Positions 3,977 to 45,722 of a stretch of 64,000 nt of DNA are shown in pieces. The notes under the pieces are model-generated. The model was not told the DNA's origin. It saw only the letters and a program-made list of their open reading frames with translations, and searched no databases. The first letter of the stretch is position 1, and each line of letters begins with the position of its first letter. Source of the DNA: an uncultured Nitrospiraceae bacterium (GTDB taxonomy: Bacteria; Nitrospirota; Thermodesulfovibrionia; Thermodesulfovibrionales; Dissulfurispiraceae); NCBI GenBank assembly GCA_963727805.1, contig CAVSHF010000003.1, positions 608,001-672,000 on the forward strand, given 5' to 3'. The position numbers and the translations under genes were made by a program.

Positions 3977-4614
3977 GTGCGCCACGAGGCTGCACAGGAA
4001 GATGAGGGTTGGCCCCTCGAAGCCGGCTTGCAGGAGCAGGCTTCAACCCACCTTAAGCTGCTGTAGTCGAAAGGCTCCGGTGGTGAGCGTTAAAGGAAAA
4101 GGCACGACTAGATCGTGTCAGGGATGGATCAGAGAGATGAGCGTAAGCGAACCGCTGATGAGGTGTCGAAAGGAAAAGGACGACGTCAAAACTGATGTTC
4201 TTACTTTGCATCAGGATTAGTTCAGGAGATACCTGTTTACTGCCTGAACGGCGTCCGGCATAGAGGCGGCATGAAGCTGATCTAGGCTCCTGTGTGGAAC
4301 GCGGGAACTCTTCATCTGATGCTAAGAGAAAACCCTATAAGTGCAAACGAAGGGGGAAAGTATCGATGCAGGTGAAGGGGTCGGACCGTCCAATAGTACC
4401 GATGAAGCGGTGATAATAAGCCGTGGAGGGAAGGGGATGGGTCAATCCACAAAGAGTACCAGTCAACTGGGTGACCAGGAGGAACTATCGCTCAATGTGT
4501 ATGGTTGAGACTGCAAAGACTCAACTTGATGATTGACACGAGCCGTATGAATCGAGAGGTTCACGTACGGAATCTGTGAGGGGCTGGTGGTGCGATTCCA
4601 CCGGCCTACTCGAC
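3977..4614 (+). mobile_element. ORF-less group II intron (IIB, RmInt1/class D-like RNA)
   Basis: Starts GTGCG and ends CCTACTCGAC; domain V GAGCCGTATGAATCGAGAGGTTCACGTACGGAATC at 4540-4574; EBS1 TTACTTT (4201-4207) pairs with IBS1 GAAGTAA (3970-3976); EBS2 GGAAA (4172-4176) pairs with IBS2 TTTCC (3964-3968); domain IV about 95 nt with no ORF. Confidence 0.92.
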
Positions 4615-20566: not shown

Positions 20567-20675
20567 AAAAAGCCGAGTCTGACGAAGTTAATTCCTTCGG
20601 CAACCCGGCTGTCTTCTACCTGGAAGACCCGTTGCTTTCCGTCCCCTTCTCACGAAAGGTTTGGCCTTATCGAGA
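20567..20675 (-). ncRNA. c-di-GMP-I (GEMM) riboswitch with overlapping intrinsic terminator
   Basis: Minus strand reads GATAAGGCCAAACCTTTCGTGAGAAGGGGACGGAAAGCAACGGGTCTT...AAGACAGCCGGGTTGCCGAA, followed by GACTCGGCTTTTT which can pair with AGCCGGGT. Confidence 0.88.
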
Positions 20676-39037: not shown

Positions 39038-39296
39038 ATAATATGTTTGTCATAATGTTTAGAGATGGGTTCGATGAACCATCATTGGTCGGCAGTTCGA
39101 TATCATTCCTGTTTCCCATGCTCAACCTGCAACTGGAATTCATCATAACATTATTAATTTATCATAACATTATTGTAGAACTGAACTAGGGTAGTTATAT
39201 CCTACCCCTCCGATATTATATTTATTCATATTATAGATCTGTTGAAATCATAAATAAAGAAGAAAATGATGAATATTTGGATATTCCGGGCAGGTT

Positions 39297-41424
39297 TCCG
39301 GGTAGGAGCAGCGATTGCTCGCCACTCCCCCCACAGACCCGGACGAGCCCGATTAAGGCATCCGGTTCGTCAGTAACAAGAGGCATACAGCCTCTGGCTA
39401 ACTAAACGGATTCGACCCGTTTAGCGCATAACTTTGCTGACCTGCATGGTTTAGATATCATGGACTATTCGGGGCGACGGCAGTGGGAACAGCCGCTCCA
39501 GCTTTGGGAATTCATCCTCCCAATTCATCGATCCCTTATTGCTGCGACGACTCAACCAGTAGTGCCACGCCTTCCGTACATGCCTGTAGACAAGCAGCAA
39601 CTTACGGTAATTGCCTCTGATGCCGTAATATTGGTAGTGACCTTTTAACTTAAGGGTTAGAACACGACATTGTTCCTTAAGCGGCTCATGTCGGTGTTCC
39701 CGACACCACTCCCAAGCGCGCTTCATGGCCCGGCGCAGCCTTTTCTTGGCTGTTTGCCGCTTTACTATCCAGTACCCCCGCCGCGTCTTCGCCCAGTAGT
39801 GCGTAAAACCCAAAAAGTCAATGCTCCCATTTTCCTCAGGGTCGCTCTTGCCTTTTGGCCTTCCGAACCTAACCAGCTTCGTCTTTGTCGGGTGTATCGT
39901 TAGCCCGTACTGTTGGAGTCTCTCAGTCAGAACGGGCAATATCCATTGTGCATCAGATTCGTGTTCGCATCCGATTAGAAAGTCATCGGCAAAACGAATC
40001 AGAAAGCTCTGTCCCTTAATGCTGGGCTTCACTTCCTTGACATACCACTCATCCAGCACATGGTGTAGGAATATATTGGCCAGAATCGGCGATATGACTC
40101 CGCCCTGCGGCGTGCCCTTCTCTGGGTATGTCAGAGTTTCCCCTTCTATTACCCCGGCATTCAGCCATTTGCCGATTAGCCGTATTATTCCTCCATCGTT
40201 GACCCTTTGCCTGATTATTTCCAACAGCCTGCCGTGATCGATATTATCGAAATAGCCTTTGACATCCGCATCCACTATCCAGCCGATGTTCCCTTTCACG
40301 CATTTCTGTTGAAGCTCGCTTAACGCCTGATGCTGGCTATGGCCGCGTCTGAAGCCGTGAGAGAAGGCGAAAAAGTCGCTCTCATACACTGCCTCAAGGA
40401 GCATCGCTACCGCACGTTGAACTACTTTGTCTTCAAACGTCGGAAGTCCTAACGGCCTTTCCCCTCCGTCATCCTTAGGTATCCACACCCGGTTTACAGG
40501 CGGAGCATGATACCGTCCTCCCTTGAGTCGTGTGTGCAGCTCCCGTAGATTTTCTTCGAGGTTTGATGCGTATTCTTCTGCTGTGACCCGGTCTATACCG
40601 GGCGCAGCGTCTTTTCGGGTCAGCCTGTAGGCTTCCCGCAAGAATTCCACATCTACGTGGTGCGCCAGCGTAGTGAACACCATCTCCGGATACCGGATGG
40701 CCTGCGCTGCAATCCACCGAAGTTTCGTTGATACGGTTTGTGAGTTCGAAGCCTCTCCCATATTTCCTCTCGGTGAAACGTTATACCCGGCCTCGCCTTC
40801 CCTTCAGTGGGTCCCTTGGTCCTCGGTTCCCCACCTTCCCGGCCCGCTGGGGCCTTCGGTACTATGCTCGGCTAAGACTGCCTCATGTCCATCCCTAGTC
40901 TCTTCGTTTGTCACTCGATTCCCGGTACCACGTTTGCTCTCTGTCTTCGTTCGTCGATGTGCGAGAGCCCTCACCGACGCCTGGGGCTTTTGTTCTTCCG
41001 GTCGCCCTCTTCCCTTCCGGTTCTCAACGTGGAGACATGCGGCCCTCCCAAGTTCCCGATCTATCCCTTTGAATGTATGCCCTGCTCTCAGACCCCGGTG
41101 GTGTTCTGATGCTCGCCATTGCGCATTCAGAACTGCTGTCTTCCAGTTGTCCGAGACTGTCGACTTTCCCTCCAATGCCCTGAAGGTTATCTTACTGACC
41201 ACAATGTCAACGATTTCGGGGCTCACTAACACGGCCTACATTCTCGCTACACCCAGCTCCGCACCTCCCCTCGCGAGGACGCACGCGGGTTCGCTTCCGA
41301 CCTGTTGGCTAAGCTTTGGCCGGATGGGACTTGAGGTTTTCCGCCTCTCACCCATTGGATAGCAACAGCAAATTTCATCTCCTTTTCGCGAGATTCCCGA
41401 TGCCTCGGATTTACCTTGGCGCGA
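39297..41424 (-). mobile_element. Group II intron (RT-encoding, no endonuclease domain; class E/F-like)
   Basis: Starts TCGCGCCAAGG and ends CCTACCCGGA; domain V GAACCGGATGCCTTAATCGGGCTCGTCCGGGTC (about 39336-39368); EBS1 CGGACA (41148-41153) pairs with 5' exon TGTCCG. Confidence 0.92.
39451..40761 (-). CDS. ltrA: Group II intron reverse transcriptase/maturase
   Basis: APGID, RPLGLPT..DKVVQ, GTPQGGVISP, RFADDF, DFLGF, domain X (GHYQYYG); no HNH. Confidence 0.96.
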   Translation of the reverse strand: MGEASNSQTVSTKLRWIAAQAIRYPEMVFTTLAHHVDVEFLREAYRLTRKDAAPGIDRVTAEEYASNLEENLRELHTRLKGGRYHAPPVNRVWIPKDDGGERPLGLPTFEDKVVQRAVAMLLEAVYESDFFAFSHGFRRGHSQHQALSELQQKCVKGNIGWIVDADVKGYFDNIDHGRLLEIIRQRVNDGGIIRLIGKWLNAGVIEGETLTYPEKGTPQGGVISPILANIFLHHVLDEWYVKEVKPSIKGQSFLIRFADDFLIGCEHESDAQWILPVLTERLQQYGLTIHPTKTKLVRFGRPKGKSDPEENGSIDFLGFTHYWAKTRRGYWIVKRQTAKKRLRRAMKRAWEWCREHRHEPLKEQCRVLTLKLKGHYQYYGIRGNYRKLLLVYRHVRKAWHYWLSRRSNKGSMNWEDEFPKLERLFPLPSPRIVHDI

Positions 41425-41498
41425 CGGACACCTATTACGATCTACTTCGGACACTATTCCAATTTAGTTCGGACAGCAATTCAAAATAGTTCGGATAG
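41425..41498. repeat. Left-end repeat array of the IS21-like element
   Basis: TTCGG cores at 41446, 41468 and 41490, plus the intron-split first copy. Confidence 0.85.
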
Positions 41499-41683
41499 AT
41501 CATCAGAGCCGTGGTTCCAAAAAGTTCAGTATCAACTTCTTCCTGAATTCTGCAGCTATTTAATGATCTGATAACTGTTTCTTTTATTTCGTACCGCGCA
41601 AAATTGAGAGGACTCTATCGGCGAGAAGTGCTCCATCTTCCAAACTAAGCAAAAAAACATTATTCCGAACACTGAAGCTTAAC

Positions 41684-41712
41684 TTGCATAAGGAAATAGT
41701 ATTTGTTACTAT
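41684..41712 (+). promoter_or_regulatory. Candidate sigma70 promoter for the cargo lipoprotein
   Basis: TTGCAT-N17-TACTAT. Confidence 0.5.
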
Positions 41713-41768
41713 TCAGTTCAACAACAGCTTAAATTGCGTCCAACTAATTTATAACGAAGGATAAAAGA

Positions 41769-42311
41769 ATGAAATTGTTTGCGAAAACCACGAGTATTTT
41801 ATTTCTAATATTATTCGCAGTATTTTCATGGGGCTGTGCTCATGTTGTTGAACCTCATGGACCTTGTGAAATCGGGACTGGCATACGGCCCCTTCAGACG
41901 GGGTATTCGGTCCAGCTTATTAATAATCAGCCCGATACAACACGCGTGTCATTTGCGAGTGCCGGTATACATACATATTTGGCGAATTATAATGAGTGGA
42001 CTCAATACTACATCGATCAACTATCCAATGAACTCACAAAGCGCAATGTCGTGGTATCTAATAAAAGTCCGAACGCTATAAGGATCACTTTGAGTCAGTT
42101 TTTAATGGCGAGATGGACGGGAAGAGGCACTATGACTATTAAATTGGAGACTGCTGACGGTAGGTGGTTTAAAGTTTATGAGGAATCTGAGACATCGGCG
42201 TGGGTCATAGAAACCGCATTTAACGGCGACGTGTGCCATTCAATAGAAATGATATCGAATGATCCAGAGGTGCTTGAAAAGATGCATGAGAGTGCGGCGG
42301 AGAAGAAATAA
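41769..42311 (+). CDS. Hypothetical lipoprotein (element cargo)
   Basis: Signal peptide ending SWGC; 180 aa. Confidence 0.75.
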   Translation: MKLFAKTTSILFLILFAVFSWGCAHVVEPHGPCEIGTGIRPLQTGYSVQLINNQPDTTRVSFASAGIHTYLANYNEWTQYYIDQLSNELTKRNVVVSNKSPNAIRITLSQFLMARWTGRGTMTIKLETADGRWFKVYEESETSAWVIETAFNGDVCHSIEMISNDPEVLEKMHESAAEKK

Positions 42312-42611
42312 CTCACTATCTGCGTATCATCTCTACATCTCCGGATTTACTAAATTACCGTCCGGTACAGGCGATAAGTGCGATACGCCGAGGTCTCGAA
42401 GTTCTGCTTAAATCTCGGTTAATTGGTGGGGATAAGAGGTATGAGTCCTTCCTGAAATCCCTGCTTATCAACATATTGGGCAAAGTGCAAATTATTATCG
42501 CAAATCAACTGCGTGGCTATTCCACGCAGAAATAAGGCAACCCGATGAGATTAGGCAAGTATGAAGTCTAACCCTCATCGATGACGCGCTGTAGAATTAT
42601 CCCTTGATAGT

Positions 42612-43148
42612 TTATTTCAGTGTCTTTAGCCTCTCTATATTCTGTCTAATAGCTTTTGCATTAGGCACATTCGGATTAAGGAGGAGCACCTTTTCAAACT
42701 CGCTCACTGCAGTCTTATAATCTTTCTTATCTTCTGAGAGGACAACCCCCATATTCATATGAGCATATAAGTGGTTTGGATTTATGGTTAGGGCTTTTTT
42801 GTATTCCTTGATGGCGAGATCTGGGTTCCCAGAATTTTTAAAGCATGTGCCCATATCCACACGAACATCCACGTTATTCGGATCAAGTTCAAGAGCCTTT
42901 TCGTAAGCACCTACCGCCTCGTTGAATCTTGCCGAGTCCATCATCATGTCTCCAAGCTGTATCAAAGCATTCAAATTCTTCGGGTCTTTAGCGAGCACAT
43001 CTCTAAGGAGTTTTTCTTGTTCTAATGTCTTGCTAGTCAGAGAGCTACTCGGACTACCTGGTTGCGGTTGCTGAGGTTTTGCTTCTTCCTTCTGTTTGCA
43101 TGCGAAAACCACAAAAAACAATAATAAAATAACCAGTATCCTTTTCAT
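42612..43148 (-). CDS. TPR-repeat lipoprotein (element cargo)
   Basis: Lipobox VFAC; TPR repeats (YEKALELDP, YKKALTINP); GAGG RBS. Confidence 0.9.
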   Translation of the reverse strand: MKRILVILLLFFVVFACKQKEEAKPQQPQPGSPSSSLTSKTLEQEKLLRDVLAKDPKNLNALIQLGDMMMDSARFNEAVGAYEKALELDPNNVDVRVDMGTCFKNSGNPDLAIKEYKKALTINPNHLYAHMNMGVVLSEDKKDYKTAVSEFEKVLLLNPNVPNAKAIRQNIERLKTLK

Positions 43149-43323
43149 CTCATCACCTCTAAATAATTTGTAGTATTATAACAGGATATTGTTCGTCATT
43201 TATGTTCTATCAATTGGACTTAAGTCAGCGCTATTCGGATGTGTCTCCAATTAAGAAAAGGGAATATGCACGATGAGTTCTTCCTATAATCTTCGCTCTT
43301 GCAATACATTGGAGCACGTTTGT

Positions 43324-43552
43324 TAGATAATCATATAGAGGGGACCTCCCCGAGCATATCGGTTAGCGGTATGCTTGAGGTAAGAGAAACAATCTTAACC
43401 TTAAGGAGGTGCTGTATGAGACTGTACACAGGTTTTGATCTTCATTCAAACAATTCATATGTGGGGATCATCGATGAGGATGGGCGAAGGCTATGGAAGA
43501 AGAAACTCCGGAACGATCCTAGTCTGATTTTAGAGACGCTCAGACCGGTGTA
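43324..43552 (+). pseudogene. Truncated IS110-family element: 5' non-coding end plus about 45 codons of the DEDD recombinase
   Basis: AAGGAGG RBS then ATG at 43416, MRLYTGFDLHSNNSYVGIIDEDGRRLWKKKLRNDP; upstream TAGATAATCATATAG resembles ends of this IS110 group. Confidence 0.78.
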
Positions 43553-43620
43553 CTTGAGATCAGAAAGGTCGTATTTTTTGGGGCATAATGTCATCGCTAT
43601 GTTAAATCATCCCGTCTGGC

Positions 43621-43713
43621 GTCCGAACTAACTTGGAATAGGTGCCCGAACTGTATTGGAATGTGTATCCGAACTAAATCGGAACGGCTCTCCGAACCTG
43701 CCCGGAATTCCCA
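43621..43713. repeat. Right-end repeat array of the IS21-like element
   Basis: CCGAAC at 43623, 43646, 43669 and 43692 (exact 23-bp period), each followed by GGAA. Confidence 0.9.
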
Positions 43714-43931
43714 ATATTCTAGCCTGTTCACAAAGGTGTTGATTTTTGATGTTCAAAAGACTTATATCCCTTATCAATAAATTGGTAGGGGATTTTTAGA
43801 CAGGTCGGCCTGCCGCGATGGGCCGAGATAATTATACAGTAAGCCCGATTAACTCTACCAGCGACTCCAAATAAGAAAATGTGGTATACTGAAATACATA
43901 GTATTGCTCTGTATTGCAAAAGGAGGTATTC

Positions 43932-44360
43932 ATGAAAAGCCATCAGAAAAGCTGGCGTATTAAAGACCCTATCATCAAGGGGATGGACATTGTACGCAAA
44001 ACCGACCAACCGGAAAACGCGCTTGCTAATGAGCTGCTTGACGAGGCCCTAAGGATGCGAATGCACCTTGGAATAGTCTTCGCCGAAGGGGTCACAGGAA
44101 GACGCGCTCGGATTGCGGGCACCGGAATAGAAGTATGGGAAGTTGTTGATGAGTATAAGGAAGCTGAGTGTGAGGAGGATTTGAAAGAGGCGTTTCCGCA
44201 TTTGACGGACAGGCAGCTCATTGCGGTCTACAAATATTACCGTGCATACCCTGAAGAGATTGACGAGTTGATAAAAATCAACGAGAATATCACTGCCGAA
44301 TCCGTCGCCGGGCTTTTTGCTTTTCGGAAGGAAGGACTTGGGGATGTTTCTGATCGATGA
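43932..44360 (+). CDS. DUF433-domain antitoxin (VapB45-like)
   Basis: ARIAGTGIEVWEV, LT..QL....YYRAYPEEID; AGGAGG RBS. Confidence 0.85.
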   Translation: MKSHQKSWRIKDPIIKGMDIVRKTDQPENALANELLDEALRMRMHLGIVFAEGVTGRRARIAGTGIEVWEVVDEYKEAECEEDLKEAFPHLTDRQLIAVYKYYRAYPEEIDELIKINENITAESVAGLFAFRKEGLGDVSDR

Positions 44361-44694
44361 GAACCTAAATGTGGGGATAGCCGAAGTCCTTAAGTCGAAT
44401 GGTATCGATGCAATTCATGTAAACACGCTAGGGCTGGCCGGTGCGTCAGATAGAGAAGTTCTCGATGAAGCCGCCCAGCAAAAGCGATGCGTTGTGACCC
44501 GCAACAGGAATGACTTCCTTGAGCTAACTAAACGTTTCTTCGGCGAGGGGCGTCCTCACCATGGTGTGCTTCTAGTCCCCAAGTCATACCGCCTCAAGGA
44601 TTATGCCAGAATAGCCCACGCCATCGCATGGATGGTCCACAATAACCCTCATGCCTTCCAGCAGTACGCCTTTCTGTTTCTGCCTCCACAGTAA
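44344..44694 (+). CDS. DUF5615 PIN-like toxin (VapC45-like)
   Basis: FLIDENL, GASDREVL, VVTRNRNDF, HHGVLL; overlaps the antitoxin. Confidence 0.85.
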   Translation: MFLIDENLNVGIAEVLKSNGIDAIHVNTLGLAGASDREVLDEAAQQKRCVVTRNRNDFLELTKRFFGEGRPHHGVLLVPKSYRLKDYARIAHAIAWMVHNNPHAFQQYAFLFLPPQ

Positions 44695-45722
44695 AACCAC
44701 AATTAAAGAATAATATTACAGGCTGAGGCTTTACGGTTATTTTTCTGCCAGCATCAACACCTTTGTGAACGGGCTAGGATGAATATTAGTACATATGATA
44801 TATTTTGGGTGATCGGATTACGTGTTGATTCAGACTTATTGCACTTTCGATTGCCCCCTCGGGCCATAAATGGTTCCCCAAACACTCTGGGATATAGAAG
44901 CCCAATGAATTCTGGCTGCAACAATAAAAGAAGTAGGCATTTTACAATTCCCAGTGTCAAAACGAATGGGACAGATTCCCCGAATATCCGTACTTCTTCG
45001 TCTTGCTCATATCGGTGACTCTCCCGTCAATCGTATATTTTAACCCTTGATAGTACTATTCATTATCTGGGTCAACCTCTGTATTCTGTGATGTTTGTCA
45101 CCAAATCTCCACATTCATAGTTTCGATGCTAATTTATATCTAGTAAACAACATAAAAAGTGGTATACTGATAGCATACTGAAAGTAGCAAACTACTACTA
45201 AATTGTATGATCTGTATAGATTTGGCTTTATTTAGAGATTCTCATTATATCGATTAGTGAAGAACATGCTGAGGCTGATTAAAGCACAGATAGAAACTCT
45301 ATGCCAATTAGACCTATTGGCTGCTCGCTTTCAGCATCTTATGTGATCATCAGAGAATTCTGATGTACAGGCACAGTTGGAATAGGGATATGTCCTTTTT
45401 CCTCTTCTTGATCGGATTTTAACTCTGATGTAATAGTATTGTAACAGCAAAGTGATATTGTCCTGACGTAATAGTCTCGATTTGCAACATTGGAACCTTC
45501 TCAGTTATCACTGATGTAACTGAGAGAGCGGAGCATTGCCTGAGATTGCGTTTATTATATCAATTGCGTTTAGGTTCATCGGCAAACCTTCAGATAACGA
45601 TGCACTTTCACTTTGCCTCTGATCATCATCAAATTATATTCACAACTATGCTATTTATGCATAATTCCCCGTTTATACGATTGCTCATAATTCCAATATT
45701 ATGTCTTTGAGGGAGAAAGCAG

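Follow-up and report, generated by a model that had tools for sequence, protein, structure and literature searches.

The window analysed here, a stretch of 64,000 nucleotides from the genome of an uncultured Nitrospiraceae bacterium, contains an IS21-type cassette whose left end is interrupted by a group II intron lying on the minus strand. Positions are those of the window.

39268-39277 (plus) and 44778-44787: left and right copies of the 10-bp duplication of a neighbouring CTAG-ended mini element
39273-39277 and 43714-43718, plus: 5-bp target duplication, ATATT
39278-43713: IS21-type cassette with TG...CA termini, four repeats per end and a 5-bp duplication, without transposase
39278-39296, plus: left cassette tip, 19 nt beginning with TG at 39278, and the intron's 3' exon, with A as IBS3
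39297-41424, minus: group II intron, 2128 nt, starting UCGCG and ending GGA
39297-39334, minus: domain VI, bulged A 7 nt before the 3' end (from the fold)
39336-39368, minus: domain V, AAC triad, UC bulge, 5-nt loop (from the fold)
39451-40761, minus: intron-encoded protein, 436 aa, reverse transcriptase (RT) and maturase, FADD motif
40873-40875, minus: J2/3, UUA; its first U (gamma) is the predicted partner of the terminal A (gamma')
41148-41153, minus: EBS1, CGGACA, loop of a CAGT/ACTG stem; the same loop position co-varies with IBS1 in relatives
41208-41213, minus: candidate EBS2, UCGUUG, position picked by eye
41425-41500, plus: 5' exon, made up of the part of repeat 1 beyond the intron, with IBS1 at 41425-41430, and the left end's inner repeats 2-4
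41769-42311, plus: passenger ORF, 180 aa, N-terminus lipoprotein-like by eye, no Pfam match
42612-43148, minus: passenger ORF, 178 aa, TPR repeats
43325-43551, plus: truncated 5' piece of another repeated element, short ORF without Pfam match
43621-43713, minus: right cassette end, TG tip at 43713, four repeats at 23-nt spacing

An earlier note on this DNA placed the intron 19 bp inside the left end, splitting the first repeat at TGTCCG/AAC, and held that its removal restores the inverted end. Both statements are borne out: the outer exon, 39278-39296, is 19 nt long and is an inverted match of 43695-43713, and the joined exons run in register with the right end from 43713. Repeats in the left end are spaced 23, 22, and 22 nt apart, while those of the right end each have one mismatch to EBS1 and are all unoccupied. 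The TCCGAAC core, said to recur in most end repeats, is present in six of the eight, and a perfect IBS1 (TGTCCG) in three, all in the left end. The last 5 nt of the left 10-bp copy of the mini element's duplication are also the left ATATT copy of the cassette; the cassette sits within that copy. This bears out the 5-bp duplication and shows that the mini element arrived first and the cassette second. The mini element itself (43719-44777) has CTAG-tipped inverted ends, a 10-bp duplication, and a DUF433 + DUF5615 (PIN-like) gene pair that is likely a toxin-antitoxin cassette; related ends were found elsewhere in the genome. No empty allele of the cassette site was found among seven congeners.

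Between the cassette ends there are passenger ORFs only and no istA or istB, and the cassette is at most a non-autonomous derivative of the IS21 family. The truncated piece at 43325-43551 matches C5:56778-57004 at 98.7% and the start of the ORF C3:2333442-2334506 at 82%; we take the element it derives from to be IS110-like. About 13 ends of the cassette type occur in the genome, many of them lone or decayed. At C3:847,620-890,102 a left-type and a right-type end lie 42.5 kb apart and flank a block of response-regulator and sensor genes, with an imperfect duplication, possibly a large cassette of the same family.

The intron has the hallmarks of group II: a domain I fold, an RT-maturase ORF in domain IV, a domain V hairpin, a domain VI with a bulged A, and EBS1-IBS1 pairing. 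Both ends are fixed by three full-length genome copies with differing flanks. The Rfam model group-II-D1D4-6 (RF02005) matches it with 114.5 bits and RF00029 gives no match even with E up to 10. Domains V and VI together fold with a z score of -3.7, and domain I, in a plain fold, with -1.5. The encoded protein scores 349 bits against the group II RT/maturase model TIGR04416 (cut-off 300), and Pfam recognised RVT_1 only, with no endonuclease domain detected in its 436 aa. The EBS1 pairing proposed in the earlier note, CGGACA in its CAGT/ACTG stem against the exon TGTCCG, is complete (6/6). Searches for a sigma-70-like promoter upstream of the intron returned 0 sites in 41300-41800. A bioreactor contig (run X2, record 9, 39227-39679, two differences) crosses the same junction of intron, tip, and flank, so the junction is not an assembly artefact. 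At least half of the intron is present in 19 sequencing runs. No spliced-exon joint was present in the contigs of four runs; a loose end before 39276 in RNA run X7 had no established link to the intron and is not part of the evidence.

The window holds other structured RNAs as well. An ORF-less group II intron of 638 nt (3977-4614, plus) has 10 full-length copies in the genome, nine identical and one at 99.8%; over its first 356 nt it resembles, at 89%, two ORF-bearing introns (C5:46.9k, C3:1128k), which are likely its helpers. A c-di-GMP-I-GGC riboswitch aptamer (71.3 bits) lies at 20595-20674 on the minus strand.

All three genome copies of the 2128-nt intron are inserted between nt 19 and 20 of three different ends of the cassette type. 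Two copies are identical and the third differs at 3 of 2128 nt, and the identity of copies lying in different exons implies recent mobility. A metagenomic copy with 99% protein identity (L081) has as its 5' exon the second repeat of a right-type end; another 99% match (L091) has an unreadable flank. A single contig of run X7 (depth 7.1) leads from the intron 5' end to an intron 3' end across exactly one 23-nt repeat unit. This joint reflects one of two things, a pair of copies occupying neighbouring repeats or a circle whose cut lies at the upstream repeat, and under both readings EBS1 must read the second repeat. No further near-identical copies were found in 67 genomes of the family, in plasmids, or in viral contigs. 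Cassette-type ends cover 1176 of the 3,887,133 bases of the genome and contain 31 of its 5414 EBS1-compatible sites (15 of 556 perfect ones), so the location of all three copies in such ends is not chance. The specialisation on IS21-type end repeats suggested by the earlier note is therefore real for this intron species, as judged from four readable sites, three of them from one genome; it did not extend to the homologues, as set out below.

The target can be read in part from these sites. EBS1 pairs with IBS1 at 6, 6, 5, and 6 of 6 positions in the four occupied sites, and all four carry AA at -12/-11, which falls in the next repeat unit. Perfect IBS1 sites with 22-bp spacing lack this AA and are empty. 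No convincing EBS2 word came out of searching domain I for plain complementarity. The candidate EBS2, which lies just after a conserved CGAAA in domain I, pairs here with exon positions -13 to -8 at 3-5 of 6, wobble included. Among relatives it co-varies with the exon (3.15 Watson-Crick pairs vs 2.05 +/- 0.27, 13 distinct words, 1/5000 permutations), with nine shifted control windows giving z between -1.5 and 1.8; it fails (0-2/6) in L089, L097, L163, L155, L002, L116, and L087. EBS1, candidate EBS2, and IBS3 together leave 1147 candidate sites, of which 17 are in ends. Base pairing alone being this permissive, extra determinants are needed and the protein probably reads more of the target. 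A filter of AA plus AAC reduces the number to 22 sites, 13 in ends, and is circular, having been derived from the occupied sites themselves.

Occupancy also differs by strand. Three of five ends with the target on the G-rich strand are occupied vs none of eight with it on the other (10/286 = 0.035, calculated by hand). The empty ends on the disfavoured strand include two perfect sites at C3:890k, and perfect sites on the favoured strand are empty at repeat 3 in the window and repeat 2 at C3:847k. This bias fits the lagging-template bias of endonuclease-less introns (PMC4615759), though GC skew is weak here (-0.004 to -0.05).

The explanation we favour, with a probability of roughly 0.75, is recent, independent retrohoming into three IS21-type ends after the exon-binding sequences drifted to match a transposase-binding repeat. 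The intron ribonucleoprotein would reverse-splice at the replication fork, where the lagging-strand template is single-stranded. EBS1 would read TGTCCG within one repeat unit, and a weak EBS2, probably together with the protein, would read AA at -12/-11 in the next unit and AAC after the site. With these determinants falling in neighbouring units, the target would span two adjacent repeats and favour 23-bp spacing. Each end would offer up to four sites, in DNA whose loss would cost the host little.

It is unlikely, in our estimation, that the intron is guided by something beyond sequence, with either repeat-bound IstA or the bent or unwound state of the DNA in paired ends acting as the guide. 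Such guidance would account for the 1147 sites left by EBS1, candidate EBS2, and IBS3, only 17 of them in ends, and for the position of all three genome copies at the outermost repeat, beside the cleavage site; moreover, near the R1-R2 junction IstA introduces a bend of about 70 degrees into each end, according to the excerpts from which this and the other papers are cited here (PMC10122671). However, protein reading of distal exon bases is the ordinary source of such specificity (PMC4615759), in L081 and in the X7 joint it is the second repeat that is used, a cognate IstA was not found in the genome, and bound IstA would rather mask the site.

The assignment of the cassette to IS21 rests on its architecture and on one relative, and it may be regarded as probable on those grounds. 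Ends of the IS21 family, as described for the IS5376 IstA complex, have a terminal CA, multiple direct repeats about 23 bp apart, and a 5-bp duplication (PMC10122671), all of which the cassette shares; it differs in that each end has four repeats and that passenger genes stand where istA-istB would be. Aligned in register, the cassette ends match an autonomous IS21 element of the same genome at its left end (15/26 and 25-26/48); fewer than 0.7% of random TG-starting 26-mers reach even 14/26. A related end (80% over 58 nt) precedes an IstA-like ORF in the genome G203 (locus L255), where the IstA fragment scores 103 bits, below the whole-protein cut-off of 160.

The autonomous IS21 copies of the genome carry other repeat cores, and no cognate IstA/IstB was present among 10 strong istB matches in the genome or 30 istB loci from four related genomes. 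Searches for an autonomous element with the same ends were negative in the organism's own genome, 251 genomes of the class, and, both by pattern and by DNA, 401 of the phylum, as were those in five related genomes, the five genomes behind L002-L053, and plasmids. In viral contigs a first search gave 0 matches and a second gave three, none of them a partner and one a chance match inside a phage ORF. The 20-kb stretch around one such end in G003 had no transposase ORF of at least 150 aa among the 12 kb listed.

The Tn7-, Tn5053-, and Mu-like families share repeated ends and 5-bp duplications. The lack of an autonomous copy with the same ends would suit a reading in which the repeats belong to such a non-IS21 TG...CA element with multiple transposase-binding sites, but the in-register resemblance to an autonomous IS21 left end from the same genome and the likeness to the end preceding the IstA-like ORF in L255 make this distinctly unlikely.

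That the insertion immobilises the cassette is plausible. IstA requires two complete repeats per end (PMC10122671) and splicing mends the RNA, not the DNA, so the insertion would disable the left end and stop IstA from using it. The cassette was probably already stranded, given that it has no transposase and that the genome yielded no autonomous element sharing its repeats, in which case immobilisation would be moot.

The same offset of all three genome copies, and the identity of two of them, could also be read as one ancestral insertion spread passively with the element through transposition or gene conversion. We regard this as very improbable: the three occupied ends differ on both sides of the intron (one left-type, one right-type, one of a third type), the intron copies are more alike than their flanks, L081 lies in a different repeat, and the cassette cargo is single-copy.

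Relatives of the intron were drawn from loci L001-L168 (at least 47% protein identity). The earlier note proposed testing close RT homologues for enrichment in IS21 ends, and named a majority of unrelated sites as the outcome that would tell against specialisation. At homologue level that outcome was observed: cassette-type ends were the insertion site of none of the 53 non-redundant relatives below 90% identity (47-79%) with a readable flank, by an end-recognition test that detected the tip in 3/3, the core in 3/4, and the periodicity in 2/4 of the four known sites; L129, whose boundary was mis-called, was left out of the flank counts. None of the five relatives at 71-79% identity lies in such ends. 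A specialisation of the entire clade on IS21 ends is barely credible in view of these 53 relatives and of the YAAC motifs, TGGCAAG-type, or unrelated sites that relatives use instead. The habit belongs to this intron species, whose relatives have other EBS words and other targets.

The EBS1 words of relatives differ and match their own exons, with a mean pairing of 5.45/6 over 33 intron-exon pairs, the four own-type sites included, vs 2.77 when permuted (maximum 3.64 in 2000); L104, a head-to-tail copy, and L028 were left out of the EBS tests. A YAAC lies 8-11 nt before the site in 16 of 33 relatives with a 5' exon, giving sites that are attC-like by eye, and these introns are not class C. Relatives on several branches (L116, L123, L132, L135, L140, L147, L002, L013, and others, 50-65% identity) insert 9-10 nt after YAAC in attC-like sites. 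A sub-clade (L004, L005, L006, L105, L109, L110, L112) inserts after TGGCAAG-N4-CACA-like sites at several unrelated loci, a target with a 5-6 bp match to the candidate EBS2. L104 and L016 are head-to-tail intron copies with a 3' end joined directly to a 5' end, and L092 and L008 are interrupted by, or carry, a second group II intron.

The intron departs from the canonical GUGYG...AY boundaries and AGC/CGC triad, having UCGCG...GA and AAC; the GUGYG...AY-type consensus is the rule for the great majority of group II introns, not for all (PMC4424553). Across the clade, ends are UCGYG...GA/GC, the AAC triad is often opposite A or G, and J2/3 is UUA or GUA. Starts are TCGCG (30), TCGTG (10), and TTGCG (1), and ends GA (38) and GC (8). 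Among the 60 rows whose triad could be read, 54 have AAC. Redundant rows are counted in these figures, and there is some circularity in the number of starts, since the fallback start finder required U. The predicted gamma-gamma' pair, between the first J2/3 base and the last intron base, is Watson-Crick in all 28 rows with a known end (21 U-A, 7 G-C), five more rows lacking a known end being left out. The triad and the second J2/3 base go together weakly (U 26, C 2, and G 2 beside AAC; G 2 and U 1 beside AGC), and strict co-variation between them was rejected. With non-canonical ends and an AAC triad, for which J2/3 compensates, the clade shows a naturally occurring variant of the group II catalytic core. 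No description of UCGYG starts, GA/GC ends, and an AAC triad was found in the literature searched, which took in a minority of the subscription papers; class E ends may stand in Simon et al. (2008).

In a quick tree, with references taken from the tables of PMC3552965 and no class E reference among them, a 34-row clade (support 99) falls outside the class D, g1, g2, and g3/F references, to which it has 30.6-34.8% identity. Membership of class D (RmInt1/RmInt2) was rejected, the protein branching separately from the class D reference L261 at 30.6% identity. The absence of an endonuclease domain and the 5-nt domain V loop are common with class E (IIE), and such a loop is a class E feature shared with IIF (PMC3753933). 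By elimination only, this points to a class E-like clade. Further likenesses to class E are an RT-X protein without endonuclease, a dominant EBS1, and a weak EBS2 (PMC3753933; PMC3552965). Class E introns are also marked by a DId3 stem-loop that carries alpha' at its tip and has an additional bulge. Class E fragments have been reported in attC arrays (PMC7923331), much as many of the relatives here appear to be attC-sited.

Introns landing in transposon ends are already known, and the habit itself is not new. In Sinorhizobium meliloti GR4, all copies of RmInt2, a class D (IIB3) intron, lie in the inverted repeats of ISRm17, where homing has been shown and a lagging-strand bias reported (PMC4615759). 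As far as the excerpts of that work go, the two introns have in common the lack of an endonuclease, identical or near-identical copies all in IS ends, recent arrival, weak EBS2 pairing, lagging-strand bias, and a target that is the main difference from a close relative. The present intron differs in that its protein has 31% identity to the class D reference and falls outside class D, in its non-canonical ends and triad, and in its target, an IS21-type direct-repeat array with at most four sites per end on non-autonomous remnants; it is known from sequence, whereas RmInt2 homing was shown experimentally. In Thermosynechococcus elongatus, the TeI3/TeI4 families reached new sets of targets as their EBS diverged, among them conserved sites within other mobile elements (PMC2882425). 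The opening of new targets, mobile elements included, through a change of EBS would be common to both systems; TeI3/TeI4, unlike the intron described here, are CL/IIB1 introns with an endonuclease, and their reported targets are not IS21 ends. No relevant case of an intron in IS21 ends was found in the published literature searched, which took in few subscription papers.

More broadly, IS21-type repeat arrays might be a recurring niche for unrelated group II introns, with this one reading two adjacent IstA sites at 23-bp spacing, filling repeat after repeat and, as a parasite, switching off DNA transposons and freezing their cargo, by means of a core with rewired ends (U...GA) and an AAC triad; we consider this wider picture doubtful. 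What the locus does offer is a clean natural case in which the recognition sites of one mobile element are home to another. Its target rule is readable from sequence: one repeat supplies IBS1, the next a second determinant, and there is a strand bias. With relatives at 71-79% identity that use other sites, it also provides a system for testing how a change in EBS moves an intron to a new multicopy niche.
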